Origin: Psammoneis japonica
Lineage: Eukaryota
DNA: 64,000 bases
Direction of reading: 5' to 3'
NCBI GenBank assembly: GCA_008632985.1
Contig: QPGO01000169.1
Coordinates: 62,001 to 126,000, forward strand
The notes under the pieces were generated by a model. That model searched no databases, was not told the origin of the DNA, and was given only the letters and a program-made list of their open reading frames with translations. Shown here in pieces: positions 1-38,234 of the stretch; position 1 is the stretch's first letter, and the number at the start of each line of letters is the position of its first letter. The translations under genes and the position numbers were made by a program.

Positions 1-127
1 AATTACACCCCAATTTCCACAAGTACGACGGGTCTTAGTGGGGCTCTCAGTTGTGATCACAAAGCATTGGGCATCCACCACTGGAGAGAAATACGAAAAG
101 ACAGGAAAGCGCTTTCTCCTTTGATGT

Positions 128-583
128 GTGCCCTCTCATTTTGTCACAACTTATTTCTTTACGACGCAAAATGACATGGAAGAGATGGCATGCAGCAGCA
201 AAGACGATGAAGATTCCAGTTCGCCCAGAAAGGAGCTTCCCAAGTTTCTGGGAGACATTCGGTTCTTGACTCTCAATGAAAAGAAAAGGCTGCACTTGAG
301 TGGTCCTGATGGAATCTTTGCCGGTGACAAGACGCACTGCCAGTGGCTCAAGAATGAACAAGTGCACCATGCTCAATGCGCTTGTTGCGGTGATGGTTCC
401 AAGGACGTGAAACTCTTTCACTGCAGCCATTGTGAGATCACAGCATGCTGTGGAAAGGACTGTCAGAAGAAGCACTGGAAAGTTCACAAAAAGGTGTGCA
501 AAGAGCCCAACAATGAACGTTTCAAAATTGCCGTGCAGCATCGGGGCAATGAGCAGCGTGGCTGTGCGCAGGTGGATGTGTGA
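128..583 (+). pseudogene. MYND-type zinc-finger gene, hypermutated and probably non-functional
   Basis: The ORF contains CACCG...KLFHCSHCEITACCGKDCQKKHWKVHKKVCK, matching the MYND pattern CxxC..RCxRC...YCxxxCQxxHWxxHKxxC. The expected Tyr reads Cys and the expected Arg reads His. The region is almost free of TpA. Confidence 0.7.
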
Positions 584-6093: not shown

Positions 6094-7220
6094 GCTGGAT
6101 GCGTTTGTGAAGTTTCAATACTTATGCATTTATATAGATAGAAAAGTTTTGTGTGACTGGAATGAGACGAGGTGCAATAATGGTGTTGTGAACGGCGGTG
6201 CTGCACAGCTTTCGCCCTTCTTGCGGACAAGGCGCAGATGGTCATCGTTGTTAAGTTATTCGTGATTGCGTCCTTTTTTACCGTCCACACAGTGCACACA
6301 TGGCACGCTGGACACTGCTCTACACTTTTATAGCAAATAATTGCCAACTCGCTAAATACAGGGTAGTCTAGAGTCTCGCACCGGTATCCTAATACTTTCC
6401 CGTACTCTCGCAAAGCAAGGCTACGACGACTCTTGAGTGGCGTTTCCTTCCAGTTTATCAAATTGTTTTTAAAATAGAAGATTAAGGAAGCCTATGTAGA
6501 GCGGAAGGTAACAGCAGAGGGAGGCACGGAGGTAGCTGTAGAGACGGTAGAGTAAAAGGGTCGAAGGACGCAAGACGAAGGGCGTTTTGTGGAAGGTATG
6601 GGTGAGGAGGGGGCAGGGAGAGAGGAGGTGAATCGGAGGATGTGCGTAGAAAGGTGAAGAACAACGTTGTAGCCAAGAGTTTGGGTGGCACACGCAATCA
6701 GTATCGTGATCGGATGCGTAGTGTGCTACATAAGAGAGCAGGTTACTAAGAAAGTCTGTTGTTAAATACCGTTCCTGTCTTATTTTGTCAATGGATCCTA
6801 AGTGTCCAATTCACGATGATACTACTTCCCAATCATATTCAAATAATGTCTCTTGCCTTCGGTTTCATCGGTCATCAGCACACCCAACAAATGAAAATCA
6901 ACAAAACTCAAGACTGACTGCTGACTGCAAACACTCATGCCGGGAACAGCAACTGGGTATTCATCGTAGAGTCTACTACTAGGCCCTAATGGAGAACCGC
7001 CAAAAATGCGTTTCCCCTCGCCGTAATTTTTAAACATTTTCAAAAACTCACCATCACTCGCTTTGCGCAAGTGTCGAGGACTTCAAAAGACGGCTTGCAT
7101 GGATGACCATCAGCACCTCGTCGCTCAGCACATTCCGGACTCTCTCTACCGTAGAGCCCCGATTAAGTTCGATATTCCAACAAGAAAAGCAACAATACCA
7201 TCTGGAAGGGTCAGTCGTCA

Positions 7221-9431
7221 ATGTTTGAAGTGTTTCCAGGGTACAATGCGACGCCAATGGCCCACTTGGCAATGCAGTATCCGATGTATTCGTTCGGAAC
7301 CCCATACGCACCGGATATTAACGGCGACGGCGTGCCAGACCTATTTCATCACAACCACTTTGAATTTAGCGATGCAAAGTCCCGGTGGTCAGATCCAAGC
7401 ATGAAGCGGTATGGGCCATTGAGATCGGCAAGTGGCGGATGTTTTGTAGACTGGGATGCAGTGTTGCGAAATCCTGAGAAAGGAACGTGGTATCCAGCCA
7501 ACGAAGGAAAAGGCTTCATAGAGTGGGACGATGCAGATACAAGTCAATGCGTAAGTCGATTGAGACGCTTTCTCAGAACCCTTTATTAGCTGTTGTTGAG
7601 TCTTACCTTCGGTGTTCTCTCGCAGATCGATGCGCATTCCACGGCTTTTCTTGACATTGACGGGGATGGCCTAAAAGATTTGTTCTTGACGACGGGAGGT
7701 GGCCGGGGAGAGGGCGAATCGGCGTTGTTCGACAATGTAATATTCTGGGGTAAGAAAACTAACTCAACACTTGGGTACAAACTTGTTGGTGGTCGAGACG
7801 CCGCGTTGGCTGCTGGAATCGAAGGGCGCACGAGAGGCAACATCAACGAGCGCGGCCGTCATCATTATTTTCTTGATGCCGATGGAGATGGATTGTTGGA
7901 CTATATTTCATTAAATATTGAAAGAAATGACGACCTTATTGTACCTGGTCAACTCAATATGAACACTGGTAGTAAGAAATTCAAGAAAATACCTGACGCC
8001 TTCAGCGAGTTCGCTGCTGTAGCTTTGTTAACAGATGTAGATGGGGACGGATTTGCGCGAGAGATGATTTTTGTGAGTACCTTTAAAGAGTTTCGTTTGT
8101 GTGTTGCTTCTCTCAATAAGCTAACACTTTGCATTTTGTCACTCTATGCGCAACATTAATCTACCAGATGTCAGAGTGTTTCGAAACACAGGTCAATGAG
8201 AAAAACAGGGTTTGCAAGCGGGCGCCAACCGGTACCTCTGTGGTGTACAGCATGGACAGAAAGAAATTCTTAGTGCGTGAGAGTAAATTCACACGGGAGT
8301 TTACAGATTACGCAAGGACAGTAGCAACTGGTGATTTTGATCACGACGGAATAGCAGACGTGGCCATACTTTTTAACAAGAAAGTGGAGCTCCACCTCTC
8401 CAGTGTGCGGAAAAAGGAATGTGAGAAGTTCAACAAGCCAGCTCAAAGAAGAAAGTGTCTTCTCACCTTGGGCATCCCCAACAGTTATATTGATCTCAAA
8501 CCAATATGTGGTTATCAATATGGGTCTACAGGGATTCGACTAGCTGATTTTAATTTGGACGGAAACTTGGATATGCTAGTGTAAGTCATTTTGAAATCGC
8601 CTCGACCATGTACTACCTACAAACGAAACACGCATCACTCTCTCTGTTTTGCTTTCCAGCCTCTGCAAAATGCCAGGTCGCCATGCTATCCTTGAGCTGC
8701 GGCCAGATAGGACGTGGAGAAGGCTCAGGACAGCTGGTGGGGATAAAAACATGAAGCTGGGCCCTATTCTGTCATCAGATGCAATGCTCGGAGGCAAAAA
8801 TTTCTGCAAGGGCGTGCCGATCGTAGCAGGAAATTTGCCCACGAATCTGAAATGCAAACACAAAGTTAAAAACAAAAGCAGATGCAAGAATTTGAAGTAT
8901 GACATTCAATGGCAAATCTGTAACAGATATCACGAAAAATCAAAGGCTGGAGAGCCTGTTGCGTGGACCCTTGGAGCGACTGTTGCCGACCTTGATAATG
9001 ATGGGTACGTTGACATAATATTGTCTCACAGGTTTGGATCCACGCTGATATTTCGCAACAAGTACGGTGACAGCAGCCAGAACAGATTCATTGCCATACG
9101 AGTTGATGAACGAGCGGGTGCTGCGGCGTCTATCGGCGCGGTTGTAAAACTCACAGCTTCACGCATGGGTCCAAAGAAAGACACTTCTACAACGCAACTA
9201 CGGATTCTCAGTTCCCTGAGCCATTCTGCAGATGCAGCGGGCGGAAATGAGGACCGCATTATTTTTGGACTTGGCAACGCGGGAATGCCCATCAGATTGA
9301 CTATTCAATGGCCTCACTGCTGCAACAAAACGATTTTCAACGGAAAAAGACTTGAGAAATGGGTTAACTCAATGGATTCTCCTTTTGTTGTGCCTCCGCT
9401 GAAGAATTGTGATAATGCTTGTTTCGGGTAA
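7221..9431 (+). CDS. FG-GAP repeat / ASPIC-UnbV (CRTAC1-like) protein, copy 1; exons 7221-7550, 7626-8072, 8168-8580, 8660-9431 (653 aa)
   Basis: Repeated DxD/NxDGxxD Ca-binding FG-GAP motifs and C-terminal ASIGAVV...EDRIIFGLG...IQWP typical of ASPIC/UnbV. All introns are GT-AG and phase-consistent. Confidence 0.88.
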
Positions 9432-10305
9432 ACGGAGGGAAGACGTACGCAAACTTCACCATGAAGAAACAAAGACGGCAAACTTGAACGTTAGTTGTGC
9501 GCCACCATGTTGATTCAGGCTGCATAATTTCCCACGAGCTCACGAGATTCTTGATACTTTCGAGATAATATCTAGGCGAACGACATGATACCGAGATGTA
9601 TTGGGTGTTGGCTTTGATGTTGACCTCTCTATCTCTTGCATCAGACGTAAAGGTCCCGTGCAAAACGTAGCGAGTTTTGACACCTGCCAATGTTTTGGAA
9701 TGAAAAATACAGCTCACACTTCATTAAGCTTGCGGTTGCCCAATAAACCTTGCGCCTCTAGTGGCCAAACACAGAAGAGAATGATGATGTGTCCTGCTAC
9801 GATTTCGATTCTCGATAGAGCGAAAGGCGAGAATCGTGAGTGGAGTTGCGAGGTTTCTTGCCAGTCACTGTAAAAATGTCCTTTCGTTGTATTCTTATCC
9901 TGTACTAACTGTACATAACCTTACATACATTTTACAGTACTGTACATGTACAGTATGTAGAATGACATGAAGGGATCGATTCTTGATTCTTCCATATCCC
10001 AGTTGTTCGTCCATAAGACATTTTTTGCTGAATCTTTATTATTTTTAAAATTTTGGTGTAGAGATAACCATGTTTATATTGCCCCGTCCGAAACCTTCCG
10101 CGCAAAATCTCGATATTGGGGAAAAAAACGGCTCAAAATTTGCCCTCACATTTTTGATTCATTCTTGTTTGGATAATAGGCGGATCCAGTGCGTGTCTCT
10201 CACGACTGTACTGCGCAGCATCAAGTTGCCACAACAATACGAAACCTATGATTGTACCTCACCTCACCACGCTTTCGTCGAACCCGAGGGAGATAAGTGA
10301 TCATC

Positions 10306-12608
10306 ATGTTTGAGGTGTTCCCCGGCTATAACGAATCTCCAATGACGGAGCTCGCCATGCAACTCCCAATGTTTACATTCGGGACTCCCTGGGCTCCAGA
10401 CTGGAATGGGGATGGCGTTCTCGATTTGTGGCATCACAATCACTATGCGTTTAGCAGAGCACCGAGCCGGTGGTCAGACCCCAGCATTGGCAAAGTAAAG
10501 AGGGGCCCAAAAAGGCACCCTGGAGGTTGTATGGTAGATTGGGACGCCGTGCTACGAGACGGTAAAACCGGTAAATACTACCCAGCTAACAACGGAGAGG
10601 GCTTTATCGAGTGGAGCGATGCAAGGAATGATCGATGCGTAAGTTGCTTCGACGCGGCCTGTCACTCGATTCGCAACTTCAGGTCGACGCTCACACTATT
10701 TTCGAGACTCGTGCTTTTCCAGTTTGACGTTCACTCAACTGCATTTCTAGATATTGACAATGACGGTTTTAAAGACCTTTTCTTAGTGACTGGAGGGGGT
10801 AGAGGTGTTGGGCATTCGTTTGATTTTGATAACATGCTTTTTTGGGGAGAGGCAACAAACTCTAGTTTGGGTTACAAACTCGTTGGAGGAAAAGGTTCTG
10901 CCCGCCTTGCACTTCTAGACGGTCGAAAGAGAAACCAAAATGAGAGAGGCCGCCATCAGTACTGGTTTGACGTCAATTCGGATGGTTATCTTGATATTAT
11001 TTTTCTTAACGAGGAACGCAACGACGACGTTGTCAGACCCGGGCAACTTTACCTCAACAATGGGAATCGAACGTTTCAAAAAGTGAAGCCAGATCCGAAA
11101 TCTGGCTTTGTCGAGTTTGCACGTGAGTGATCAGCTTCTGTCACTTACTTGTTTGGCATTCAAGTGCTCACAAAGTTATTCTTTTGACTTCTTGCAGGTA
11201 TGGCGCTTCTTACAGATATTGACGGTGACGGGCATGCCAGAGAGCTTGTTGTTGTGAGTCACTTAACGTGTCATTGTGTTTTCAAAGATCATAACTAACG
11301 ACCACGCCCTCCTTCCTGTCTGATGTTTGTTTGAAAACAGCCAAGCGATTGCCAAAGTAGAAAAAGAGGGAAAGGACCACCACACAATTTTGTTTGTGAT
11401 CGTTCCCCGCTTGGTACTATCTCCGTTTATCGCCGCGACGCTGAACGCCAGTTGGTTCGTGAAACCATGTATGAATCAGCGTCAACAAAAGAAAGGTTCG
11501 TCAGGGCACTATATGCTGGCGATTTTGATTCTGATACTCAAGCGGACACGGTGGGTCAGCGACAGGAGCAACAATGTCTTCCAGCTCAAAAGCTTCGGTG
11601 CTCATTTATCGCTCTGTGCTTTCCGAATCGCAGGTAATTTTATGGGCGAAAAAAGTAAACTTTCATTTATCGACGTCTCGGAAAAAGAGGTGCCGCGCTC
11701 TTCGTGGTCGTAAACGAAGGAAGTGCTTTCTAACTCTTGCGCCGCCGGACGTTGAGGTGGACCTTGAAAGCGTTTGTGGCGAAGAGGGCGCCGTTGGTTT
11801 TCGTTTTGCCGACTTTAACCTTGACGGTCGCCTTGATATGCTCATACTCTGCGAAGAACCTGGGCATCACCGTATCTACGAGCAGACTTCAAGGAAGACC
11901 TGGAAGCAGATGCGAAATGAGCAAGGCAAAAAACTTAGTCTTGGCTTGTTAAACTCTAAAGATCTAATGATGGGGGGCAAGGACTTCTGTGATGGCTTGC
12001 CCCTCGACAAGGATCTTCCACTTGACAACTGTCCAAAGCTGTTTGACGATGAAGCTTGTAAAAACGTCACTTACCAAAGCCAGTACCTACTATGTAACAT
12101 GCGAGAGAAAGGTACTTGGCCAACAGCAATCGGAGCCACTGTCGCAGATATTGATAATGACGGCTTTGAAGACTTAATCGTCTCGCACCTTTATGGGTCC
12201 ACGCTGATGTTTCGCAATACCTTGGCGGACACTTTGAAAAGAAGATTTCTCGCAATTCGACTGGATCGCAAGGCAGGGGAGGCTGCAAGTATCGGTGCCG
12301 TTGTCAAACTAAGAGCATCGCGCATGGGGCCGTACGCAAACGAAACAACTACTCAAGTTCGTGTGCTCTCAACATTAAGTCATCACTCGAATGGTAACGG
12401 AGGGAACGAGGACCGATTGATTTTCGGTTTAGGAACCAAGGGAAGGCTACTAAAAATTGTGGTTACATGGCCGAACTGTTGTAACCCGACAGTTATCAAA
12501 TCTAACCCATCAAACCAGGTCTGGAAGTGGAAGAACTCAATGATCAGACCATATGAAATTGCGGCTCCGAAGAATTGCGATGTTAGCTGTTTTCGTACCA
12601 AGGAATAG
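10306..12608 (+). CDS. FG-GAP / ASPIC-UnbV protein, copy 2; exons 10306-10638, 10723-11122, 11198-11253, 11341-11550, 11634-12608 (657 aa)
   Basis: Same MFEVFPGYN start and motif order as copy 1. Four phase-consistent GT-AG introns. Confidence 0.88.
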
Positions 12609-12638
12609 AAAGAGTCAGCCGTCATCGATACTGCCATT

Positions 12639-13328
12639 TTAATCTGAATCATCCTCAATCACCACTGCCTTGCTGTCATCATTCTGAAATACACCCTCCA
12701 ATGCGGATGCTAGTTCCTTTAGGGTAGGATCGTAGTCAGCTGATGCACGGATGAGGCCCAGAACATCTTCAATTTCTGCATTGACCCCGGAGCGTACTTT
12801 TTCCTTTTCTTGCTCTGACATCATTTCAGAATAGTGACAAAACCTTACATGTTGGGTAAGTGCCAAACGAGCGCGATTGATAAAGGTCCGAACAAGTGTC
12901 CCGAATATGGTTGTTGATGCTGCTGTTTTGAACAAGACACTCTCATCTCCTTGAACGAAAGCACGTGTCATTCGGGCGAGCTTCTTATCATTCATGAATT
13001 GAATGCCAAAGTCGCGGTCAACCTCGAGGCGAACAATCATTCCATAGTCTCTTTCTTCATCAAGTGAGTCGACGTCTACAATTGTAGCACCGACGTATGT
13101 CCACATGTTCACATCTAAACAGTTGGAGTATGCCTTGTGTGCTGTAATTCTCGTTGGCGTAGCGTTGTTGATGTGTTTTCCATCCGCCGTGATGTGACGA
13201 GTTCTTCGTGATTTTTGTTTGGTATCAAATCCACTTAGCAAATGATGTATGTAGAAATGTACACAGCCTACATACGGAGCCGATCTTTGCGGATCGTCTG
13301 TGTGTTGCCGCGGTGTGCACCGTTCCAT
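12639..13328 (-). CDS. Hypothetical protein at the edge of a hypermutated domain
   Basis: 229-aa ATG-initiated ORF of normal composition (Tyr retained). No family recognised. Confidence 0.45.
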   Translation of the reverse strand: MERCTPRQHTDDPQRSAPYVGCVHFYIHHLLSGFDTKQKSRRTRHITADGKHINNATPTRITAHKAYSNCLDVNMWTYVGATIVDVDSLDEERDYGMIVRLEVDRDFGIQFMNDKKLARMTRAFVQGDESVLFKTAASTTIFGTLVRTFINRARLALTQHVRFCHYSEMMSEQEKEKVRSGVNAEIEDVLGLIRASADYDPTLKELASALEGVFQNDDSKAVVIEDDSD

Positions 13329-15472
13329 TTTTCTCTAATTCCATCCACTTCCAACTTTTGTTCATGGTCAACATTCAATGCCGCTGCTGACATTGGAGTA
13401 ATACGAGTACCAACAACATGGATGCACAACGCAATGCCATTGAAGGGGAGGATGTGGATGATTTAGAGCAACAGGACATTGCTCCTGATGATGTGCTCAA
13501 CGGCGCAGGAGTTCCCGCCACAGAAAATCCCCTGACAGGTTCCGTCCAAATGGGGCGATGCATGTCTACGAACAGAGAGCAATGCCGATAAGACCGAGAG
13601 ATGTGACGAATGTTAACAATTCTCGATGTTTACAAAAAGACGATGAAAACGGCATGGCATGGATGTGTCTGCATTCATCAAATGACGGCGACATTGCTCG
13701 TTGTGATGCGTCAGACTGACTCTTCATGATGCTGTTTTTTTTCATTAAATCCCAACTCGAAAGAAGAAGACAAAGAGGAAGATGAAGACGAGGAAAAGCA
13801 TGACACAATGAAGACAATGAGGAGGAGGAGGACGATGAAGACGACAAGGAGGAGGAGAGGAGGAGGAGTGCGGTGAGGACGATGACCGCAAGGAAGACAA
13901 GGACCGCGAAAGCGAACAAGACAAGAACAACAAAGAGGACGAGGGGACCCACTGGCAAGATGTGGACAAAAATCAGAAAGGAAAATCCTGGGTTGCCTTC
14001 AATCAAGGGTTCCACCAAGATCCATTCTCACCCTCAGTTCTGCTCACTCTCTGACAAGCTCCAGAAAGCACTCAAAAACAAATTTCCAGTTTAGATGCCA
14101 AAATTCCCTTGGAGAACAAACCTGAAGACACTCAAGAAGCTGGTGTGTCCAGATTTGATGCCACCCAAAGGAGAGCCAAAAAAGTGCGTAAAATGAAGAT
14201 GGCATCTGGAGAAGAACATCAGCATGAGGTTTTGCGTTGCACCCCCTCGGAATTTGCATCCCTGCCAGCCAAGCACCAGGATCCAGTCCAAAAACACTGC
14301 TGCAGCAGTCTTCCACTGACAAGCAATTTGTCAAAAAGGAACAGAAAAAATGCATGTCACAGACAGAGATGTGAGTTCAATGCCAAGAAAGCAAATGGAG
14401 TCATTTCAAAAGATGAAAAATTCTAGTTTGATTGCAATGAGGAAGAAGAACAAGCCCGTCGTGCTTGGCAGACACCCAGAAAAAAAAACTCCCAGTGTTC
14501 TCAGCATGCAAGATGTTGTGGCCAAAACACTCATGTCCTGTGGCCTTGTTCATGAAGCTTTGCCACCCACAGGTGATTGGCAACGTGGCTTGTCCTTGTT
14601 CAAACATTTTTTTTTGGGATTCTGACTTCAGCACCCGTGCCACCAGCAAATTTGTTCTCCGCGAAGACTGCAAATCGTTCCCAAAACTCAAACAGGCATT
14701 GCTCTGCCATTGCAGGCCATGGAGTGTCCCAAAAATTTATCGAAGCAAAGCGAGCAAGGTGTCTGCCAAGACACAGAAGAAAAGGAAGAAAAATGGCGAT
14801 TTTGCGGCGACAAAGAAGAAAAGGAAGAAGAGCGATGATTCTTCTTTTGTTGAGCAACAGCAGCATTGTCGAGAACGGGCACATCTGTTTGCAAAGCATG
14901 GCTGCAATGGCAGCGGTGAGTTTTGCCACCAATGCAAAGCTTGGATTAAAAGGTCACTTCTGAGAAAAGGGAAGATTTCAAGACGATCATGAGTGGGTTG
15001 GAGGGGAGTCACTGTGGGCACTGTGGAAGGTGCATCATTGGCGGAACTCAACAACAAATGTGTGACCTCCCTCAAGTGGAGCAACACCTCAACATGCACT
15101 GGTGAGATCAAAAAACTCTTGTCTGCTTTTTTCTTGTTAAATTGACTCAAACCTTGCCATGCTTTCTTGTTCTGTCCTGCATTCTCCTGTTCAAAGTTCT
15201 CACAGACTCGAATTCACTGGGATCTCTGAGTCTGGGAACAAGTGGAGGCACACATCACATCTCAAATCAAAAGAGGGTCTTGCGGACAAGATGGCATGCA
15301 ATGAACAAAAAAGAAGATGTTTGTCTTGGAAGAGTGCACCAAGTGGCAAAGTGAAGATTTCACCAAAGCTCCGAACTGGCCTTCTGAGTGGGCCCACATT
15401 GAAGATCCAGGACATGTCAAGCTTGATTTGGCACTTCAAGGGATGGATGCAATCCCTGACGGCATGAACGAA

Positions 15473-15594
15473 GAAGACTGCAACGGGTCGAGCAAGACCA
15501 GGGAAGACTGCAGTGGGTTCAACGATGACGGGGAAGACTGCAATGGGTCGAGCGAGACTGGGGAAGACTCTGCAATGGGTTCAACAATGATGGG
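15473..15594 (+). repeat. 30-bp tandem repeat, about 4 units, arranged as a 60-bp ABAB higher-order unit
   Basis: Units: gaagactgcaacgggtcgagcaagaccagg / gaagactgcagtgggttcaacgatgacggg / gaagactgcaatgggtcgagcgagactggg / gaagactctgcaatgggttcaacaatgatggg. Confidence 0.85.
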
Positions 15595-15817
15595 TGCATG
15601 ATCCAGCCAGTCGTGCAGACATTTTGCACATTCAACACCATTTGGAGCAAATGCAAACACAGCAAAAATGACATGAGCCCTTCTTGCACCACAAAACTGG
15701 AAACGCCAGTCGCGCAAAACTCAGAGCTTTGCATTTCAAAAAGTCATCATCCACCACAGTGTGCTCTGTGTTGCTTTTTCAAAATTGAACGCCTGTGCAA
15801 GAACATGTTCGTTTGTC

Positions 15818-17164
15818 ATGTTTGAGGTGTTTCCTGGGCACAACGCACCTCCAATGAGTGAGTCAGCTGTGCAACTGCCATCTTTGGCACACAGTGTTGG
15901 TTGTGACTGTCACGTGATGCAAATTTGAAGCACCAACGAAACCCCATTTGTGAAAGATCCCCGCGAGGAAGCATCGGCATTCATGGCCATGACTCCAGTC
16001 AATGCCTGACACAAGCAAGTGTCCACAAGCTGTCTCAGAGACATGAGAAGGAAGTTGAGTCAATTGCTGCAGGAGACTTTGACGGAGATGGTTTGGCAGA
16101 TGTTGCTGTCCTGTGGGGGAAGAAACCAAATTTCCATCTCTCGTCAAACAAAAAGGATCGATGCAGTCTTGTTTCTGATGAAACACAACACTGCACATGT
16201 CTTCATGATTTGGGTCAGGTGGACAAAGTGGCAAATCTATCTCGTTGCGGTCATGGCGGCACAGTTGGGATGCAATTCTTTGACTTCAACCTTGACGGAA
16301 AGGAAGATGTGCTGGTGCAAGTTGTGCTTGGCGACACTTTTGCTTCTGTGTCCTTTTTGTTCAAAAATGTCTGATGTGCACTTCTGTGTCAATGTTGGGC
16401 CAAAGGGTTTGCCGCGATCCAGGGAAGCACTGCATTCATGAGCAAATGTCTGATGGGACCTGGAGGGAGATGATGGGTCCGAATGGTCGGGAGTTTGAAT
16501 TTGGGGTGCTCAATGAAGAGGACTTGCCAATGGGTGGAAATCACTTCTGTGATGGAGTGCCAACTTCAATGGCACAGCTGCAATGTGAAAACCAATTTAG
16601 CAAAGAAGAGTGCAGATGTGCCAAATGCACGAATCAGCTTGCAATGTGCAGCATGCAAGCCGACAACCAAAACAAGCCAAATGTGACCACTCTCAGTGCA
16701 ACTGTTGCTGACATTGACAATGATGGTCTTGCAGACATTGTTCTTGGGTGCCGAGTGGGGATGACAGAGATGCTTTGCAAAACATGCGGAGACACCAGGA
16801 GAAGAAAATTCATTGCTTTACAACTTGACAAAAAGAACAGGGCAGCAGCAACAGCGGGTGCAGTTGTGCAGTTGAAAGCTGATCGAATGGGTCACACTCA
16901 AATGAGACAATGACACAGACCCAAATCATCAGCTTGCTGAGCCACCAAACTGACTCCAGTGGCGGCACCAAGGACCACTTGACATTTGGTCTTGGAAAGC
17001 AAGGACCAACGCAAAAAATCACGGTGCACTGGCCAAGCTGTTGCCAGCCAACGTACCTTGTTGCATGACAGGAAGAGTTGTGGAAAAAACGGAACTCAAT
17101 GATTGATCCGTGTGAAGTGGCTGCTCCAGAAAACTGTGACAAGAGCTGTTTCTCACCCTCCTGA
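15818..17164 (+). pseudogene. FG-GAP / ASPIC-UnbV pseudogene A (internally deleted, hypermutated)
   Basis: Starts MFEVFPGHNAPPMSESAVQLP, jumps to the middle of the gene (GDFDGDGLADVAVLW, DFNLDGKEDVLV), retains an intron with a dead GCAAGT donor at 16317, and ends ...PCEVAAPENCDKSCF. Several frameshifts. Confidence 0.9.
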
Positions 17165-17189
17165 TTTTCATTTGAGATGTGGGCAGGAT

Positions 17190-17455
17190 GACGGGCCAGG
17201 TCACTCATGCCTCTCAACAATGGAGATCGCAGCCTTCAAAAAGACAAAAACAGGGAGGACCGGCTTTGCGGAGTGCGCAAGTGAGTTGGTTTTCATCGTT
17301 GTCTGTTCCTTGCCACACTGCAATTTCATGTGTGATTGTGTGCTGACCAAAACACATTTGCACTCTGCTTCTGGCCATGGCAACAGCAGTTGCTGATGTC
17401 AATGGAGACCGCGAGGGAGACAGTTGTTCCAAGTGGCTGTGAAAGTTGTGGCAAA
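17190..17455 (+). pseudogene. Displaced internal fragment of an FG-GAP gene, including an intron
   Basis: Resembles copy 2 RPGQLYLNNGNRTFQK...GFVEFA. It is followed by a GTGAG donor at 17281 and then DVNGD...VPSGCE. Confidence 0.7.
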
Positions 17456-19959
17456 CCCAACCCACGAGACAACACGAGCCTCCAGAGCCAGTGGAGAGTG
17501 TGATGCCACATGCAGCGCCAAACTCCAGCAGTGGAACAATGTGAGAGGCTGGGGCAGCAGCCTGCAGTGTCGCGAAACTGTTTTTAGTGACTCATTGAAA
17601 AAATGCTGAATTCCTTGCATTTTACGGCACAGTCACAACTGAGACATCAGTCATCATTCGTTGTTGGCAATTGGCAATGACAATCATTGGAAAGTGATGG
17701 CAGTCATCAAATCAGTGAAGAGGAGGGGAGTGATGATGACCAGCCAGAAAACAGAGTGACCCCAGACACAAAACAAAAACTGCATTGCGGCAACTGCACA
17801 AACCAAACTGGTGCTCAGTCATTTGGATGGCTGCTTCCTGTGCAACAAAAACACACTCAACAGACTGTGGGCAGTTGGGGCATTTGAGTGCAAGACCGAA
17901 GATGCTCAAATGAAATGGACTCAATGAAATTTGGTTTGCAGACACAACCTGTTCAACCAGCTGGCAAAAAACATTTTGGTGTGGCAGCGGCTGCATTCCA
18001 GCCCCAGGCAGGACTCTGTGTGACATGGACCCACGGAGTTTTGCAAAAGAGCACACAGCAAAAACATTGGGTGGCTGACAATGTGCAGACAATCGCCAAC
18101 AGAAAAAGAGAAGCAATTTGTGAACACACAAACTTGCCCATGCTTGCAGTGCATTGTTTCTGGTTTGCCCTGGTGTTTTCTTCTTTTCACATGTCAAAGG
18201 AAGCATCCAGCCCATTTTGCTTGTGTCACAAATGGGCAAAACAGAGGAGAAAGCACTCAGCTTCACAAAACAAAGAGTGCAAAACAGCTTTGAAAAAAGA
18301 GCACATGTGGAAACATGTTCACATGCAACACATGTGGTGCATGATTGAAAAAAGAACATTTGTGCCACAGTCCAGAAGCAGCAGCATGAGGCTGCACCCT
18401 GGGACCTGGAGCACATCTGCCAGACAGAACCTTTTTGCACTTGGGGTGACAAATTCCACCATGTGGAAATGGGTGGGCAGCTGTCAGATTGTTCATCTCC
18501 TGGCAGATGAAAAAAGGCGGAATGCATGGAGGCCAAATCAGTGAAGGTTTCTCAGTTTCTTGCAGGGCCACGGACACCCAGCAGCATTGGGTGTGATGTG
18601 TTCCAGCTGTGCAAACCCCCACCCCAGCTGCACACCAAAAACAACATGGCTTCTGACTTGCAAGCGAGCTCTCAGCCACCACCAAAAAGTGCAGATGTTT
18701 GCCCAAATGCTGGTGTTTTGTGACACTGACAGTGCCAGTCTTGCAATGTTGCTGTTTTTGTGCTGTCAATGTTTTCATTGAAACAAATGAGTTGCAACAC
18801 AGCAGATCATTTTTGACCAAAATCTTGAAGATTTGTGCACACCGTTGTTGTTTCTTGGGTGTTGACACAAAATGCTTGTTTGTGAGGTTTTTGGAAGGTG
18901 TTTCACCTGTGATGGTTTCATTGCACCAATGCACTGCTCATGCAATTGTTGCTGATTTCACAGAAGAAATTGTGGTGCTGCATGACCTGTGAAAACTTGG
19001 ACACCAATGAAAACATTGTTTGGCTGTCCATGCTCCAGACAACAGTGAAAGCTGTGAGCACAGCCACGTTCAAAGAAGTGGAATGTTGTTTTGTGTGCCA
19101 CCTGGGGCTGGAGCATGTTGCACCCTGGCACGTGAAAAGTGCCATCATGTTCTGGTGCAACTGATCAGAAAGAAAGAAAAAGGACAAAAATGTGACAAAA
19201 TTCATGATGAAAGGTCCACTTGCTGCCCTTCCCATCCAACATTTGACACCAAAGTGCACTTGAGCAGGAAAGCAATTTCAGCTGCTCTTTTAAAAAATCA
19301 AACTGGCCAGCAACGCAAAAGGTTTGGACTCCTCTTTCACATTGCTTGGCCTTTTGTCCAATCCAGCAGCACCCATTTGGGCATGTTGATGTGTGTGTCA
19401 ATGCATCAGCAAAACATGAGCATCACGATTGTCTTTGCTGAATCTTTTCTGGACCATTTTGCATTTCACACAGGGATTGATGTCATTGCCCCTGCTTGGC
19501 GCAGTGCCAGAAGAGTTTCTTGACAGAATGTGGTTGAGAATGATGGCAACAAGCCCCAAGCCAGAGGGAGTGGAGAGCAAGCCCACCTCCTCTGGACCCA
19601 CCACAGCTTGATGTGAGAGTTGCTCCAAGGAGTTGTCATCAGTTGCAAGTCAGTGAGAAAACAGTTTTGTTTTGGTGTTGTTGAAAATGGCAGGGGCAGT
19701 CTGCATTTTTCCCAAATGGTGGGGTGGTTGTTGCTTGTCATTGCACAGTTTTCTGCCATCTCCCAGAGACACATCAAATTCGCCAACCCACCCTTTTTGC
19801 ACCCTGCAGACAGACATGTCTTGCTCTCTTCCTCCATGTGCAACAATTTAAAAAAACCAACTTCAACAAAATCTCAGTCAATCATGGAAGAGAGATGAGC
19901 TCTTGCCCCTTGTGTGCAACAGACCACTTGGTCAATCTTGCAGAACAATGTGGATCCTG

Positions 19960-20580
19960 AGGGAGGGCTGGGATGAGTTTTTTCAAGACTGCAATCTAGA
20001 TGGTTGCGTTGACATGCTGATTGTGTGCAAAGATCCTTCAAGACATCACATCTGTGAGTGCACAAGACTGATGGATTGTGGCAGCCAGTGGATGGGGCAT
20101 TGGGTTCATGACTGAACCCACAATTGATGCTGCCTGCAAGCTGCTGGGAACAACCAAAGTGTGCAAATGTGAGCCACAAGTTCTGGCCCACAATCCTCAA
20201 GCCATGACTCCATTGCAAAAACATCCAGCACTGCCACAGCCAATGTGAATGACCAAAGTGCACAAATGTGCACCACAAATTTTGACCCACAATCTTCAAG
20301 CCACAACTCTGGCTGTTGCAAAAACATCTGGTGCCAGCACATCCAATGCAAACAACAATGGGTTTGTGGATCTCATTTTGAGGTGCAAGTTTGGAAGCAG
20401 CATCATCATGCTGCACAGCGCACATGGAGACCAATCAAGAAACAGTTCTTCCCCTTGTGTTTGCACAGGACTGCAAGGGCTAGAGACACTGGTGTGTGTG
20501 ATTGTGCAGCTCAACACTGGCAGAGGGGATCTGAACACCAAAAATGAGGCTGCAAGCCAAACTTGGGTGACTGGCTTGTT
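19960..20580 (+). pseudogene. FG-GAP / ASPIC-UnbV pseudogene B (heavily decayed 3' part)
   Basis: DCNLDGCVDMLIVCKDPSRHHICE and NNGFVDLILRCKFGSSIIMLHSAHGDQSRN align with DFNLDGxxDMLxVCKxPGRHRIYE and DNDGxxDIILGxxFGSxxxxRNxxGDxxxN of the intact copies. Confidence 0.75.
20153..20352 (+). repeat. ~99-bp tandem duplication (2 units)
   Basis: Units start accaaagtg at 20153 and 20252 and share ccacaatc.tcaagcca and ttgcaaaaacatc. Confidence 0.8.
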
Positions 20581-21825
20581 CCAGCCCTGGTGGGTGGGAG
20601 CTTGCTCTGCTGCTGGGCTGATTTTTTGTTTTTGTGCCACATTCAGTGCATGTGCATTTCTGCTTGACTTTGGTGGATTTTGTGTCACTTTGCAGTGCCC
20701 CAATTGGGCAATCCAATGAACAGCTTTTTGACTTTTTCTTTGAGTGTGAAGAGGAGGCGTGGCTGTGCTGCAAATTTGGTCCTTCACTTGGGCATGAAAG
20801 ACAAGTGCACCAAGGTCTCCACAGGCCTGCATCTCATGGAGTGATTTCCACCAAGGGATGAGGTGCACTCACATGCAGCCCCACCCAGGGCTGCTTGGAC
20901 ACATCAGCGCCAGAGCTTGCTGTCAAATGGCCTGCAGCTGTGTGCCCCGAGATGGTCTTTGATGTTTGATGGCTCAAGGAAAGGTGTTTGCTGCACAAAG
21001 TTGTCACTTCACAGAAATGTGGAACACACTGCTTTGAGAAGAAAAATGAACTGCAGGCATTTTGTCACGCACATGGATTTGGGCCAAAAGTGCAGCATGA
21101 TGGCAGGGTGCTGGCCACCTGGTGGTTTGAAGCTGAGCACAGCAAGTGCAGCATGTGCCAACACTTCACAGGCAGAGTGAGGTGCAAGCTTCTCCTGAGA
21201 AAAAAGCTGATCATGTTGATGATGTGCACCAGAGCGAAGATGCAAAGAAGACCTCCACTTCCTCTGCTCCTCCTCAGTGGCATCTGAAGCCCAGCTCAGC
21301 GAAAGTTGCGAGGCACTCTCGTCCGTGCTGCAGAATCTACGGCACGTTGCCGGTGGCTGCACGGCTTGCGGGAGCCTGCGTGCGTGGTTGCGGTTGGCGG
21401 GCTTCGTCTCGCTTTCAGCTTTCGTCTTTCGTGTTCCGTGTTCACACAGAGCCGGCCCGCAGAGCGAGCATGATGATGCAGTGCAGCAGCGACAACCAAC
21501 AAAAATTCAGTGCGGTACGAGAGGCCGGGGCAAGCGCGTCGCGAAACTATGTTTAGCAACTTTCTGACGGAAACAAAAAAAATCCTTATTAACAGTCATT
21601 TGTTGGCAATAACAAAAGGGAATTTTTTGTGCATGACTTTTCTTACTATCTCTCCATCTGCACGCGAAGTGACATTTTTCGCTCTTCAGTCAGAGGTAGG
21701 TACTCGTCAAAACTTCAAAGCCCCTCACATTTTCACCTGCATGCGCCGCATGAGCAAAAATAGAGCTCGCCTAGCTCCACCCATACCCACGGAAACTGGT
21801 CAACTCATTTTTTAAATGAGGTGCA

Positions 21826-24213
21826 ATGTTCGAATTACTTCGTGGGTACAATGAAGCTCCCATGACTGACTTAGCCATGCAGCTTCCGATGCTAAATCAC
21901 GGATCTCCGCATGCACCTGACTGGAATGGCGATGGATTTCTTGATCTGTGGCACCATAATCATTATTCGTTCAGCGGGGATACAATTAGATGGTCTGATC
22001 CAAGTACAGAGAAAAAGGGTCCAGATAGCACTCCAGGCGGGTGCATGGTTGACTGGGACGCTGTGTTGCGGAACGGGGACACGGGGACGTACTCTGCGCC
22101 CGAACATGGCTTTATTTCGTGGGCTGACGATGTTTCTGACTGGTGTGTAAGTTAATTTCGGTGACAAAAAAGTTACGTTTCGTTGTCAACGTCGTTCTCT
22201 CACAGTGTGTTTGACATTCCAGTTCGACGTACATTCCACCTCCTTTCTTGACATCGATAACGACGGCGTGAAAGACTTGTTTGTGACCACAGGGGGCGGC
22301 AAAGGTTTCGGAAACTCCTTTCGATACAATAACTTGCTCTTCTGGGGAGAGAGGACAAACTCGACAGTTGGATTGCGTCTTAAAGGAGGTAGACAAGCAG
22401 CCAAGAAGGTTGGTTTGGAAGGCCGTGATCACAGAGGGAACGAGAGAGGCCGTCATCAATACTGGATGGACGCCAACGGGGACGGACTTTTGGATGTAGT
22501 AACACTCACCGAAGAGAACAAGGCAGATTCGATAAAGCCTGGAAAGCTCTATCAAAACTTAAATGGAAGAAAGTTTGTTGAAGTTGAACATTTTGGAGGG
22601 AAGGATTTCGCGGAATTCGCGGAAATGGCAATGTACGTTTCGCATTTCGTGAAGTTAGAGTCGTGTGTAACTCGTTACTTTGTCCAGTTGCTGGACTACA
22701 CGCGGTTTGTTTCCAAGTCTTCTTACGCTTTTCTCTTCCTTTTTCACTAAAAGACTCACAGATATTGATGGCGATGGCTACGCTCGTGAGTAGCCCTTTT
22801 GTTCTGCAGCTGCATCTTGGAAGGCCTTCTGCAAGGCTGATCCATAGGCATCCGTCACAAACAAGACTCGCTCAACCTTTCCATTGCCCCTTTTTCGTTC
22901 TTTTCGTTTCGTTCAGGAGAGTTTCTTGTGCCTTCAAACTGCGAGCCGCGCAGCTGTGAGAACGAGGGCGTACCTCGTCGAGAAAACTTCGTTTGTAGAA
23001 GGGCGCCTCGCGGAAGCATTACAGTGTATAAAATGGACCCCGAGAAAGCATTAATTCGAGAAGAGACGTCTCGGCCTGCGAAAGCCTGTGACTTTGTGCG
23101 ATCAATAGCCACAGGGGATTGGGATAATGACGGAATTGCAGACATTGCCATCCTTTTGGTTAAGGAAGTGCATTTTCATTTCTCGACGACAAGACTCAAA
23201 CGATGTAAGCGCACCATCGATGAAAGAGAACGTAAAAAATGTCCCTACATTTTGGGCAAACCAAATGGCAAGATAAACCTCAAATCCGCTTGTGGCGAAG
23301 AGGGGGCAGCAGGTATCCATTTTGCAGATTTCAATCTCGACGGAAAGGAGGATATGCTTGTGTACGTAAACTATTTCAATCCCATCCCTTACTTCACCAC
23401 CTCATCCTCTTACTCACGACTCCTCCTCCTCCTCCTCCTCCTAGTGTTTGCAAGATACCTGGTCTTCATTTCATCTATGAGCAGATATCAAAGCGCACCT
23501 GGAAAGTCATTAAGGATAGTACGGGAAAGCGAGCTGATTTTGGCGATCTCAATGACGCGTCGTTGACATCTGGTGGGTCAAAGTTCTGTGAAGGCGTACC
23601 AATTTCCAAAACGAGCTCAGCGAGGCGTTGTAAGCAACCGTTTCATAGCCCTGAGGAATGCAAACACGTGCGCTATAACCAGCAATACGTTATTTGCAAC
23701 ATGATAGCAAAAAATCAAAATCAAACCGTTGCCAGGGCTTTTAATCCCACCGTTGTTGACATTGACAACGACGGATATCAGGATATTATAATTGGGCACA
23801 AATTTGGCAGTACGGTGATAGTCCGAAACACATTCGGGGACTCCGATCCAAACAGATTCTTTTTGGTACGATTAGACAGAACGGCTGGAGCTGCGGCAGC
23901 CATTGGGGCGGTTGTCAAAGTTCGCTGCGACCGAATGGGACCAAACGGCAACGAAATAATAACGCAGACTCGTGTTCTCAGCTCCCTTGGACATGGCGCC
24001 AACGCTGAATCCGGCAACGAGGATAGATTGATATTTGGGCTTGGAAAGAAAGGAAGGGTCAAAAGACTCACAATACATTGGCCTCACTGTTGCGAACCAA
24101 CAGTCATTTCTCGTCACAATGATACCAAGCTTTTTAATTGGAAGAGCTCAAATATGATGGAACCGTTTGAGATATTCCCACCTGAGAATTGTGACAACAG
24201 TTGCTGGTTGTAA
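21826..24213 (+). CDS. FG-GAP / ASPIC-UnbV protein, copy 3; exons 21826-22146, 22223-22632, 22754-22785, 22917-23361, 23445-24213
   Basis: Same motif order as copy 1. Four phase-consistent GT-AG introns and a 32-nt micro-exon encoding LTDIDGDGYA. Confidence 0.88.
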
Positions 24214-24385: not shown

Positions 24386-26703
24386 TTAGGCCTTGAAGCA
24401 GCTCTTATCACAGTTGACAGGAGGTGCTGGAACGTCGTAAGGTGTGTCCATGGAACTCACAAACGGAAGTAGTTCTGCCGCTCCAATAGTTGTCATCTCG
24501 CAGCAGTGAGGCCATTGCACCGTGAGCTCCACTGGCGTCCCAGCGATACCAAGTCCAAAAATCAAACGATCTTCACTTCCACCCTGAATCGCGCAACAAA
24601 GTAGTACGTGAGAGGGCGATTCCAGTCACCGCGAAACAAAAAAGGAGAGAAAATTAATCTACAAACCTCTGAATCCGTTTCATGACTAAGGGAACTGAGG
24701 ACACGTAACTGAGTAGTTTCCTCGTTTTGATCGGCGCCCATGGAAGAGGCTTTGAGTCTCACAATAGCTCCGATAGAAGCTGCAGGACCTGCGTTCTTGT
24801 CCAATCTAACGGCAAGATATTTGTTTTTATTCCCGTTGTCGCCCAATGTGTTGCGCACGATTACCGTAGCTCCATACAAATAGCCAAGAATAATGTCAAG
24901 GAACCCATCGTTATCAAGATCGGCAACGGTGGGTGCAAACGATCGAACTCGGTTCTGTTTGTTCAAGCTACAAACAGCAAACAGTAATAGGTAGTCAAGA
25001 TCTTGGCATTGCTCGAGGGTCAAGTATTTCGTGCATTTGCTGCTCTTCCTCACATCTGCCTCGACCGTCGGGACACCATCACAAATACTCTCTGGGAAGA
25101 CATGCTTGCGGGAATTTAGGTCGCCATATTCCATTCTTTCTCCCTCCTCGTTCTTTAACGGCTCGAAGACCTTTTTGGATGTGAGCTCGTACATACCATG
25201 AGTTGCCGGTTTGTCACAGATACTACAATTAAGAAGGGGGGATATACGCAGTTAGAAAATGAGTTCATGACTTCTTCCGACAAGTTAATTTCAACAACAG
25301 GATAGCCACTTACACGAGCATGTCTATTTTCCCGTTCAGGTTGAAATCAGCGAAGCGAATTCCACTCGCGCCCTTGAATCCACAGAGAGGTTTCAGATCC
25401 AGCTTTGACGTTGGGTTTCCCATGTAGTTGAGACAGCTCATAAGCCTAACATCTTCCGTGAAACCCTTGCACTTCCTTTGACGTGACGATGACAAATAGA
25501 AATCAACCCGATTTCCCCAGAGAATTGCCTGAACGCGAAGAAGCGGCAGAACTTTGAGCATGAAAATCTGGCTTTCGTCGTATGCATAGATGGCAAGAAA
25601 CACTTACAACGTCTGGTATTCCGTCCAAATCAAAGTCTTCAGTGGCAATAGATTTTGCAAAATCAAACTTGCCAGCGCCTCTTGGCGGCCTCTTCGTGAG
25701 TGACGTACGGCGCAGACCATGTTTCGAATCAAACTCGTAGACACTGAGGGCAAGCTTAGGCTTGTTCTTACAGACGTAATTATTAGACGCCGCACTCGCC
25801 CTGTCAGTATTTTTGCAGTTGGAGGGAACTACAAACTCACGTGCATAGCCATCCCCATTGACATCAGTTAACACGCCCATCCCTGCGCAACAGCGTAAGT
25901 AAAGATAAGTTAGGTAAAACGGATCATCCAAATCTCACGAATCTGCGCATTCGAAAATACAACATAGTTGTTTGCTTACTTGCGAATTCGGCAAAATTAC
26001 GCCCTTTCAATTTTGGTGTCTTGAAGACCCTTCCGTTCGAGTTCAAGTAGAAGCGACCAGGGCTAATTTTACCGTCTGCTCGTTCGTCATTCAGGGTGAC
26101 AAAATCCAGAAATCCGTCTCCGTTTGCGTCAAACCAATAGTGATGGCGACCGCGTTCGTTTCCTTCCTCGTTGTTTCGGCCATTCACTTGTGCGGCAAAA
26201 GCAGCGTCTCTACCACCGACAAACCGCATCCCAAGGTCCGAGGTTTTGTCTTCCTGTCCCCAAAAGAGTGCGTTGTCTTTTCCGGTGGTGTTGGCAAGGC
26301 CCATCCCACCGCCAGTCACCAAGTAGAAGTCTTTGATACCATCTCCATCAATATCAATAAATGCAGAGGAATGAGAATCAAAACATTTGTCTGGTTTCTC
26401 GTCATTTCGCTCAATGAAACCTTTACCCGAATTGGGGGCGTAGTAGGTGCCGTCATCGTTGTTACGCAATAGTGCGTCCCAGTCGACCGTGCAACCGCCT
26501 TTTCGGGGACCTACGACCGTCATGCTCGGATCCGACCACCGTTTAGTGTCCCGGCTGAATCCAAAGTGATTGTGATGAAACAGGTCAGGCACTCCATCGC
26601 CATCGATGTCAGCAGCATACGGAGACCCGTGCCCGTACATGGGAAGGTGCATGGCGAGCCCCAACATGGCAGTCTCATTGTACCCTGGAAGTAGTTGGAA
26701 CAT
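24386..26703 (-). CDS. FG-GAP / ASPIC-UnbV protein, copy 4 (inverted); exons 26703-25980, 25882-25608, 25528-25314, 25222-24667, 24583-24386
   Basis: MFQLLPGYN start, FG-GAP motifs and EDRLIFGLG...VQWPHCC end. Four phase-consistent GT-AG introns. Confidence 0.88.
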
Positions 26704-30325: not shown

Positions 30326-30530
30326 CCATACCCGCCCTTGACCATCCCATTGCGAGCTGTGGACAGTGCGTGCGCGTCATCCCCAAACCTCCGGTAGCAA
30401 ATCTACGTTGTTTCTACGCGAGGCAACGGTCGGCACGTTTTTCATGATCTTTCCGAACCCTCCTGTGGCATTGTTACTTCCATCGTATCCTTAGTGCCGG
30501 TGCTCTGCACTTCTTTGCGATTCCAAAGCC

Positions 30531-37963: not shown

Positions 37964-38234
37964 AAACTCACGTATGAAGCTGTTTCTATAGGTTTTGAAA
38001 CAGACCTGGCTGTCGTGAAAATAGAATGCCGACATCGCGTTTTGTCGCCGGGTAGTCGTGGTACTAATGAAGACTAGACTCTAGCGTTGTACTGTTGGAG
38101 GAAGGAGTGAGTAGATCTTTGGCAGTATTACCTGTAGCAAAAATATTAGAGAAGTCTGCCTGTGTTCCAACACTCTACACTACCGGTAGGCCCACTGACG
38201 GACTTCAGTCATTTAGCCGCCGCGCTCTACTGTA

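Follow-up and report, generated by a model that had tools for sequence, protein, structure and literature searches.

A window of 64,000 nucleotides from the diatom Psammoneis japonica (assembly GCA_008632985.1, contig QPGO01000169.1, positions 62,001 to 126,000 of the forward strand; positions below count from the first letter of this window) contains a tandem family of FG-GAP/UnbV_ASPIC genes, one member of which, designated c3, is a pseudogene. In c3, as in the domain that surrounds it, TpA and CpG dinucleotides have been removed by single transitions, rapidly compared with background change and without strand bias. The best match among described systems is the TpA hypermutation of the chlorarachniophyte Bigelowiella natans, here occurring in a diatom, saturated, and combined with CpG decay. 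The portions of the B. natans preprint drawn on here report that, of 231 new mutations in two silent viral insertions, 230 changed A to G or T to C, all of these at TpA, and that the genome holds clusters poor in TpA and rich in CpA and TpG. An ADAT2-like deaminase was named as a candidate, and a defence resembling repeat-induced point mutation (RIP) was proposed (Mettrop et al., bioRxiv 10.64898/2026.01.13.699255).

As far as those portions go, the two cases agree in that a changed TpA gives TpG or CpA according to the strand, and in that the process is limited to particular silent regions, the regional limits being seen here as domains with normal surroundings. They differ in several respects. 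New mutations were measured in accumulation lines in B. natans, whereas the window displays an end state alone. The active region, which derives from a nucleocytoplasmic large DNA virus, is mildly depleted there (Rho TpA 0.45), while depletion here is near total, with an observed/expected ratio (O/E) of 0.04. Changes from G/C to A/T are not raised there, in contrast to a CG O/E of 0.22 in the window and the change of 20 of 24 ancestral CG sites in c3. The CpG loss may be a second, methylation-driven process acting in the same domains. Finally, B. natans belongs to the Rhizaria and diatoms to the stramenopiles, and here host-gene relics (FG-GAP, ammonium transporter) are found among the victims next to a retroelement.

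Fungal RIP shares with this locus the restriction to transitions, the dinucleotide context, the sharply limited stretches and the wholesale killing of genes and transposons, and it likewise leaves compositionally distinct domains beside normal genes. Its chemistry runs the other way: RIP converts CpA to TpA, so that TA is enriched, CA/TG depleted and G+C lowered, whereas here the reverse holds at TA and G+C is 47.8% in the affected domains versus 46.7% outside them. RIP targets duplicated sequences; within the window, no repeats were found between the affected domains, and the paralogs, about 54% identical, are mostly untouched.

Diatoms carry DNMT4 enzymes of unknown function related to RID, the enzyme of RIP, and their transposons are methylated in a DNMT5a-dependent manner, according to the parts of PMC9998398 used here; nothing on TA appears in those parts, and the decay of methylated transposons would explain the CG half of the pattern only. 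That half it does resemble, through the loss of CG to TG or CA in domains with transposon relics and a matching excess of TG and CA.

TadA and ADAT2-3 act on U33-A34 of tRNA. The neighbour preference seen here before the changed A (T >> A > C, G) is reminiscent of the 5' U preference of A-to-I RNA editors, with the difference that these enzymes act on RNA. A 5' neighbour preference of ADAR on double-stranded RNA, and activity of A-to-I editors on DNA in special cases only (amphioxus, Trypanosoma), are both known to us as cited in the portions of 10.64898/2026.01.13.699255 drawn on here. No report of TpA-directed hypermutation in diatoms was found in the limited collection of literature searched.

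Fate of TpA and CpG in a dead FG-GAP gene

Translated searches of the window, made with the segment 15701-17300 and two paralogs as queries, detect six collinear copies of one gene, c1 to c6 (Table 1). Copy c3 falls into four frame segments (15818-15880, 15913-16317, 16383-16892 and 16889-17152) and closes with a TGA at 17162-17164. It is collinear with its paralogs in tblastn and retains Pfam matches to FG-GAP_3 on 15907-16371 (E=9.7e-9) and on 16296-16910 (E=0.0019). Between the exon-1 relic and 15913 all paralogs have an internal segment of about 1 kb, or some 200-250 codons and the introns, that is deleted from c3. With this deletion, a frameshift and stops, c3 is a pseudogene. Its lesions are real in the reads, because a contig of the DNA run X1 (14503-18026) matches the window without gaps and with five letter differences, only one of which (16687) falls within c3 and none at a lesion.

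The composition of c3 is altered along with its reading frame. Within 1125 aligned bases there are 43-50 TA, 46-75 CG and 7-13 tyrosines in the intact copies, as against 4, 26 and 1 in c3, where the remaining TA are at 16238, 16598, 16819 and 17054. Conserved tyrosine has become histidine or cysteine at four of five positions. In the 88 bp of the intron relic there is no TA and a single CG, whereas the homologous introns hold 4-8 TA.

Direct DNA alignment of c3 to its paralogs extends over the first ~65 bp only; DNA similarity among the copies being too low, a codon alignment guided by the protein alignment was used instead, with 375 codon columns common to all six copies. A dinucleotide was considered ancestral when common to five, at least four or at least three of the five intact copies. 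At these successive stringencies, 3 of 3, 6 of 6 and 14 of 14 ancestral TA sites are changed in c3, with conversion to CA or TG at 3/3, 6/6 and 10/14, and 3/4, 5/7 and 20/24 ancestral CG sites are changed. All other ancestral dinucleotides are changed at 21/115, 78/256 and 244/524, i.e. 18-47% (Fisher p for TA versus others: 0.0076, 0.00096 and 2.8e-5). This count had been suggested by the initial annotation, made from the letters of the window, which held that comparison with the paralogs would reveal the direction of mutation unless ancestral TA proved no more mutated than AA, CA or GA. The direction is indeed readable: conserved TA is all lost by single transitions, to CA or TG, and CG goes mostly to CA or TG. 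Measured against AA, CA and GA together, TA is more often changed at every stringency (3/3 vs 1/26, p = 0.0011; 6/6 vs 20/64, p = 0.0018; 14/14 vs 62/136, p = 6.4e-5; Fisher). A separate MAFFT alignment, with 380 ungapped columns, returned identical TA and CG counts.

As a control, each intact copy was tested against the other four, and c3 was tested likewise, with summation over the five reference sets. The intact copies have lost 1/4, 0/3, 1/4, 1/4 and 0/3 of their conserved TA sites, 3/18 in all, while c3 has lost 18/18. At other conserved dinucleotides c3 shows 162/716 changes, and the five live copies together 141/716. TA loss was therefore far faster than ordinary decay; a rough estimate is that TA conversion exceeded ordinary change by two orders of magnitude. 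The badly decayed fragment c7, in the same domain, has changed at 7/7 TA and 8/8 CG; it adds little because it is decayed overall, as 105/165 of its other dinucleotides have changed too.

Changes from A to G in c3 depend on the preceding base: they affect 4/14 TA, 10/57 AA, 0/33 CA and 0/46 GA, and four of five such changes at a conserved A before a conserved T have a 5' T in c3. Conversion of TG to CG is found at 2/57 sites. AA to AG (10/57) and TT to CT (7/49) were considered as a secondary target, which we do not claim, as AAT/ATT and AAC/GTT are only down to 0.91-0.93 of normal at the level of the domains.

Most of the individual substitutions that the initial annotation had listed as TpA or CpG changes hold up at the codon level. 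GYN->GHN corresponds to TAC or TAT in the five paralogs and CAC in c3 at 15839, EDML->EDVL to GAT ATG in four of five paralogs and GAT GTG in c3, and RIYE->CIHE to CGT or CGA replaced by TGC and TAC or TAT replaced by CAT; VAILW->VAVLW is found where it was described. MRF->MQF and RLD->QLD are CpG-type changes (CGN to CAA), and AAC GCA retains its CG in c3. For other items the change is present and the proposed ancestor is not supported by the paralogs. EL->ES was derived from TTA, which occurs in one of five paralogs, the rest having TTG or CTC; PYE->PCE presupposes a tyrosine that two of five paralogs possess; and for AMQ->AVQ the T in front of ATG exists in c3 only, the paralogs having A or C. 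The guess of a synonymous 5' T before ATG was not unreasonable, in view of the four in five such A to G changes with T before them in c3. The splice donor GCAAGT is where it was placed; in our numbering of the copies, c1 and c5 have GTAAGT at this site and c4 has GTACGT. Calling the five neighbours intact is a fair description as far as can be checked, because their frame breaks are GT..AG introns and contigs of the run X2 lack two introns of c1 (7551-7625 and 8581-8659).

Domains depleted of TpA and CpG

Such depletion is not peculiar to the pseudogene. Averaged over its whole length, the window is poor in TA (O/E 0.34) and CG (0.61) and rich in CA/TG (about 1.47), and these averages mix two states, the profile in 1-kb steps being bimodal. 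Per kilobase, TA O/E is 0.00-0.08 and CG O/E 0.05-0.42 in three domains that we call null (Table 1), as against ~0.6 and ~1.0 in normal stretches. Pooled, the null domains (30.6 kb) contain 86 TA (O/E 0.04) and 391 CG (0.22), with CA and TG at O/E 1.82 and 1.77 and CA+TG at 6865, and the normal domains (30.7 kb) 1390 TA (0.64), 1669 CG (1.00) and 4345 CA+TG. The loss of ~2580 TA and CG thus matches the gain of ~2520 CA and TG. Depletion of TA is uniformly near complete, while that of CG is uneven among the domains (O/E 0.18-0.29). Their edges range from sharp (38286; 46932-47005) to a few hundred bases wide; around the domain that holds c3, TA thins over 13464-13746 and normal density is back at 21516.

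In the normal domains, introns and spacers keep TA at O/E 0.5-1.3 and CG at 0.6-1.5. The null composition is therefore neither a neutral equilibrium nor a trait of non-coding DNA, since introns and spacers of the live copies keep their TA while the intron relic of c3 has none. Copy c3 is one passenger of a sharply bounded null domain, and it shows normal host sequence to have taken on the null composition in situ, as opposed to an import of that composition with foreign DNA.

TA sites were not all removed with equal efficiency. Expressed as the count in null domains over that in normal domains, ATAT (0/108), ATAC/GTAT (0/176), ATAG/CTAT (2/145), ATAA/TTAT (3/195), GTAC (4/108) and CTAC/GTAG (7/197) have nearly disappeared, while GTAA/TTAC (16/189), CTAG (10/74), CTAA/TTAG (22/114) and TTAA (22/83) persist more often; the corresponding trinucleotide ratios are 0.01 for TAT, 0.04 for TAC, 0.08 for TAG and 0.13 for TAA. 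From these flank ratios, TA is efficiently removed if either strand reads T-A-pyrimidine, and pyrimidine-T-A-purine resists. Such a preference is enzyme-like. The loss of CpG has no flank preference (ratios 0.18-0.35), and this flat context fits methylation-driven decay. CA and TG are about equal in the null domains, so both strands are affected alike; when strand coordination was tested, no CA-versus-TG skew particular to the null domains was found.

The same replacements recur in relics unrelated to the FG-GAP family, which were recognized in a Pfam run on 97 long open reading frames (ORFs) of the null domains. The ammonium transporter relic, compared with 15 diatom homologs, keeps 45 of 60 conserved positions; its four conserved tyrosines have all been replaced (H, H, C, H), as against 11 of 56 other conserved residues. 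The integrase relic, compared with 22 homologs, keeps 59 of 86 conserved positions; again all four conserved tyrosines are replaced (C, C, C, H), versus 23 of 82 other conserved residues, and a single tyrosine is left in 384 residues, while tyrosine makes up 2.3-5.2% of 21 of the 22 homologs. The null domains catch host-type genes as well as transposons.

Among 150 public representatives of the integrase homologs (median tyrosine 3.4%), eight have zero or one tyrosine: P0188, P0226, P0228, P0276, P0279, P0303, P0308 and P0321. P0308 has none in 606 residues, and all eight are rich in histidine, cysteine and glutamine, a composition that TA-free DNA elsewhere would be expected to give. Scanning metagenomes with P0308 gave no match; a scan with P0226 gave one locus, 53% identical and of normal composition (TA O/E 0.97), from which nothing follows.

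Stop codons are affected as well: TAA and TAG number 40 and 27 in the null domains, compared to 335 and 309 in the normal ones, and TGA numbers 825 in the null domains. Since TAA and TAG are almost gone, long overlapping ORFs without family match fill both strands of the null domains, e.g. at 41226-42572 (-) and 47255-48748 (-). The stretch 1-1800, where an ORF with a MYND zinc finger lies at 125-580 (+), is intermediate in composition (TA O/E 0.19, CG 0.67), perhaps as a domain that is younger or converted in part. A whole-window blastn self-search returned the paralogs only and hence no DNA repeats between null domains, and a sensitive self-search of each null domain detected no long terminal repeat pair or other repeat except three local duplications of 60-85 bp. 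A ~62-bp unit in the null domain is tandemly duplicated immediately ahead of c3, at 15473-15594 (85% identity). In the normal domains, the short stretches 6466-6693 and 22785-22916, one of which lies within a c4 intron, may be dispersed high-copy elements, in view of X1 word depths of hundreds to thousands versus ~60 and numerous loose ends; both retain TA and CG.

The null sequence is present in the reads. Contigs of run X1 (depth 60-68) cover 6672-14501, 14503-18026 (depth 68) and 17998-22651 with two, five and three differing letters and no gaps. The window may itself have been assembled from the X1 sample, so that X1 shows that reads carry the null sequence and does not amount to independent biology. 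All ten differences are transitions and lie within 13710-21071, inside the null domain or its thinning left edge, while ~11 kb of flanking normal sequence has none, one misplaced paralog contig aside. Seven or eight are exchanges between CG and CA/TG, the only hint of methylation in the null domain, and at 21070-21071 the window has CA where X1 has TG. Strain or allele variation could account for these letters, and so could errors of the consensus at modified bases. The run X2, which resembles an RNA library in that the c1 introns are skipped, has no contig over 13337-22007, and no RNA data set is listed with sequence from 12500-22400; this is not evidence of silence.

Table 1. Features of the 64,000-nucleotide window, in window coordinates
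Feature	Position	Strand	Remarks
c1, intact paralog	7221-9431	+	
c2, intact paralog	10306-12608	+	No intron at the site homologous to 16317
First null domain	13750-21340 (approximate edges)		Holds c3 and c7; 17 TA (O/E 0.03), 120 CG (O/E 0.28)
c3, degenerate FG-GAP/UnbV_ASPIC paralog (pseudogene)	15818-17164	+	
c3 exon-1 relic (MFEVFPGHN...)	15818-15928	+	Ends at TGA 15926-15928
c3 splice-donor relic GCAAGT	16317-16322	+	GTAAGT in c1 and c5, GTACGT in c4; T to C at TpA
c3 intron relic	16318-16405	+	Intron common to c1, c4 and c5; AG acceptor kept at ~16404-16405
c3 frameshift	16890-16898 (after 16892)	+	Loss of one base directly behind ...CGA ATG GGT (RMG); no break in any of the five paralogs
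c3 in-frame TGA	17066-17068	+	In the last conserved block (...TYLVA-stop-QEELW...)
c7, seventh FG-GAP fragment, badly decayed	19903-20512	+	Same null domain as c3; no intron at the DML/V-C site
c4, intact paralog	21826-24213	+	Starts ~300-480 bp past the right edge of the null domain
c5, intact paralog	24389-26703 (low coordinate approximate)	-	GT..AG introns
c6, intact paralog	27619-29829	+	Two GT..AG introns near 27942-28168, none later
Class I fumarase ORF	30495-32312		80-85% identity to Chaetoceros, Nitzschia, Fragilaria, Phaeodactylum and Thalassiosira proteins
Integrase relic	38208-39359	-	Second null domain; Pfam
Second null domain	38290-44340		Retroelement relics; 18 TA (O/E 0.04); left edge sharp at 38286
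Reverse transcriptase relic	39866-40414	-	Second null domain; Pfam
Third null domain	47010-64000		Runs off the window; 51 TA (O/E 0.045), CG O/E 0.18; left edge 46932-47005
Ammonium transporter relic	50325-50570	-	Third null domain; closest database proteins are from diatoms
FAD/NAD-binding oxidoreductase relic	51110-52958	-	Third null domain; Pfam

Possible origins of the losses

The direction of the changes, their dinucleotide specificity, their regional limits and their excess over background are established by the data above. We favour, with a probability of about 0.6, the interpretation that c3 is a dead member of the tandem family caught in a chromatin-sized domain under targeted hypermutation, in which the TpA half proceeds by adenine deamination in DNA and the CpG half by deamination of 5-methylcytosine. 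Transitions would destroy both of the pyrimidine-purine steps that are self-complementary: TpA would become CpA or TpG, through T to C on one strand or the other, and CpG would become TpG or CpA. Each site would be struck once and then be inert, so that TA and CG vanish, CA/TG doubles and G+C remains constant; in c3 the outcome would be the passage of conserved tyrosine to histidine or cysteine, of CGN arginine to glutamine, cysteine or histidine, and of the GT donor to GC. The TpA half may be the work of an ADAT2/TadA-like or similar deaminase that converts A to inosine, read as G, in a T-A-pyrimidine context, and the CpG half may take place in methylated silent chromatin. Acting together, the two would permanently disable silenced DNA in a RIP-like manner.

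Several points weigh against this interpretation. No enzyme, base modification or mutation rate has been observed, the end state alone being seen. The B. natans process is almost exclusively from A/T to G/C, while here CpG is lost alongside; either two processes coincide, or the process is a different one from that of B. natans. Substrates of eukaryotic ADAT2/3 mostly carry a purine after A34, so that the T-A-pyrimidine preference is closer to that of bacterial TadA than to that of ADAT2/3. The context ratios presuppose null domains that started from normal-domain composition. In c3 itself, many A to G and T to C changes lie off any inferable TpA, e.g. five GAT to GAC or CAT to CAC, and the polarisable TA sites number only 3, 6 or 14 according to stringency: with paralogs ~54% identical in aligned DNA and a star-like tree, they are limited to conserved ones. 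The paralogs are old, moreover, and the c3 branch includes a functional period.

Because the sequence cannot separate A to G on one strand from T to C on the other, routes through thymine oxidation or biased T:G repair keep some probability. The same regional hypermutation might act on thymine in its TpA half, a JBP/TET-type dioxygenase oxidising T to 5-hydroxymethyl- or 5-formyluracil; mispairing of this base with G, or its faulty repair, would then yield T to C. The appearance of both CA and TG in place of TA suits this route as well as deamination, and dinoflagellate 5-hydroxymethyluracil is enriched at TpA and TpC, while 5-formyluracil promotes T to C. We nevertheless think it unlikely. 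No TpC depletion is visible (TC O/E 0.97 in null versus 1.08 in normal domains), neither such an enzyme nor such a base turned up for diatoms in the literature searched, and adenine deamination is what the one study with this signature puts forward. Biased mismatch repair has in our opinion a slimmer chance still: a T:G glycosylase of the MBD4/TDG or very short patch (VSP) type, active in methylated chromatin, would over-correct replication errors to G:C and erode TA, as in the depletion of CTAG by VSP repair in E. coli, while unrepaired deamination of 5-methylcytosine would erode CG. That TA and CG losses share domains, and that the ten window-versus-X1 differences are all transitions in the null domain, mostly between CG and CA/TG, would suit it. 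Efficient T:G to C:G repair, however, should protect CpG, which is at O/E 0.22, and a TA loss of 94-96% with a strong flank preference looks like direct targeting and not like a by-product of rare errors; the scarcity of TG to CG in c3 also argues against it.

Plain neutral decay, foreign origin and artefact are readings that we reject. Had c3 been an old pseudogene drifting towards the mutational equilibrium of its genome, the low TA and high CA/TG of the whole window would have been the expected background; but the window average is a mixture of two states, introns and spacers beside the intact copies retain TA and CG, at other conserved dinucleotides the functional copies have diverged about as much as c3, and the domain edges are sharp, as at 38286, which makes this account very improbable. 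The reverse transcriptase and integrase relics in one null domain might suggest that these domains are insertions of viruses or transposons that avoid TA and CG, for example through selection on RNA, with c3 as a captured copy. Here the position of c3, in register within the tandem array and with a start motif and an intron position common to c1, c4 and c5, speaks for a resident gene. Its TA has been replaced by one-step transitions even at conserved tyrosines and at the splice donor, synonymous avoidance being unused, and host-type gene relics in another domain show the same pattern; a foreign source is thus highly implausible. It is scarcely credible, lastly, that heavy base modification in silent chromatin misled base-calling. 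The ten window-versus-read differences do cluster in the null domain and are mostly of CpG type, as might be the case if modified bases had produced errors in the consensus, yet the X1 contigs, possibly from the assembly's own sample, reproduce the null sequence over 7.6 kb save these ten letters and without gaps. Miscalls at symmetrically modified sites should moreover differ by strand and leave a mixture that includes TA and CG, and c3 carries in addition a deletion, a frameshift and many other substitutions.

The gene array and the meaning of the null domains

Pfam identifies FG-GAP_3, FG-GAP and UnbV_ASPIC domains in the intact copies. The family is rare, its best match outside the window being 48% identical. 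The intron after ...DML(V), of which c3 keeps the relic, is present in c1 (8581-8659), c4 (23363-23445) and c5 (25222-25312) and absent from c2, c6 and c7, whereas the first intron, after ...CVS, occurs in c1, c2, c4 and c6 and is absent from c5. Fragment c7 is nearer to c6 (42/104 residues) than to c3 (32/104), so two separate members of the family died in the null domain.

If adenine deamination is the correct reading of the TpA half, one may go further and suppose that diatoms possess an enzymatic DNA-editing defence, in which adenine in T-A-pyrimidine is deaminated across silenced domains and, together with CpG methylation, both palindromic steps are erased, so that transposons and the host genes caught among them are permanently scrambled. 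It would be an old and widespread eukaryotic counterpart of RIP, opposite in chemical direction, given that the same TpA signature is active in a chlorarachniophyte. We offer this broader proposal tentatively and lean against rather than towards it.

To date, TpA hypermutation of silenced DNA is known from B. natans only, through a 2026 preprint; a diatom footprint would show that it is not the curiosity of a single alga. The dead gene beside five live paralogs provides a natural test of polarity. Of most interest to us are how saturated and sharply bounded the domains are, and the flank preference, which any candidate enzyme would have to reproduce: T-A-pyrimidine hot, pyrimidine-T-A-purine resistant. 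For diatom genomics, domains without TAA and TAG give long spurious ORFs with no tyrosine and many cysteines, histidines and glutamines, a trap for gene callers. Relics within them are hard to recognise by homology, and composition alone, a TA O/E below 0.1, marks the domains.

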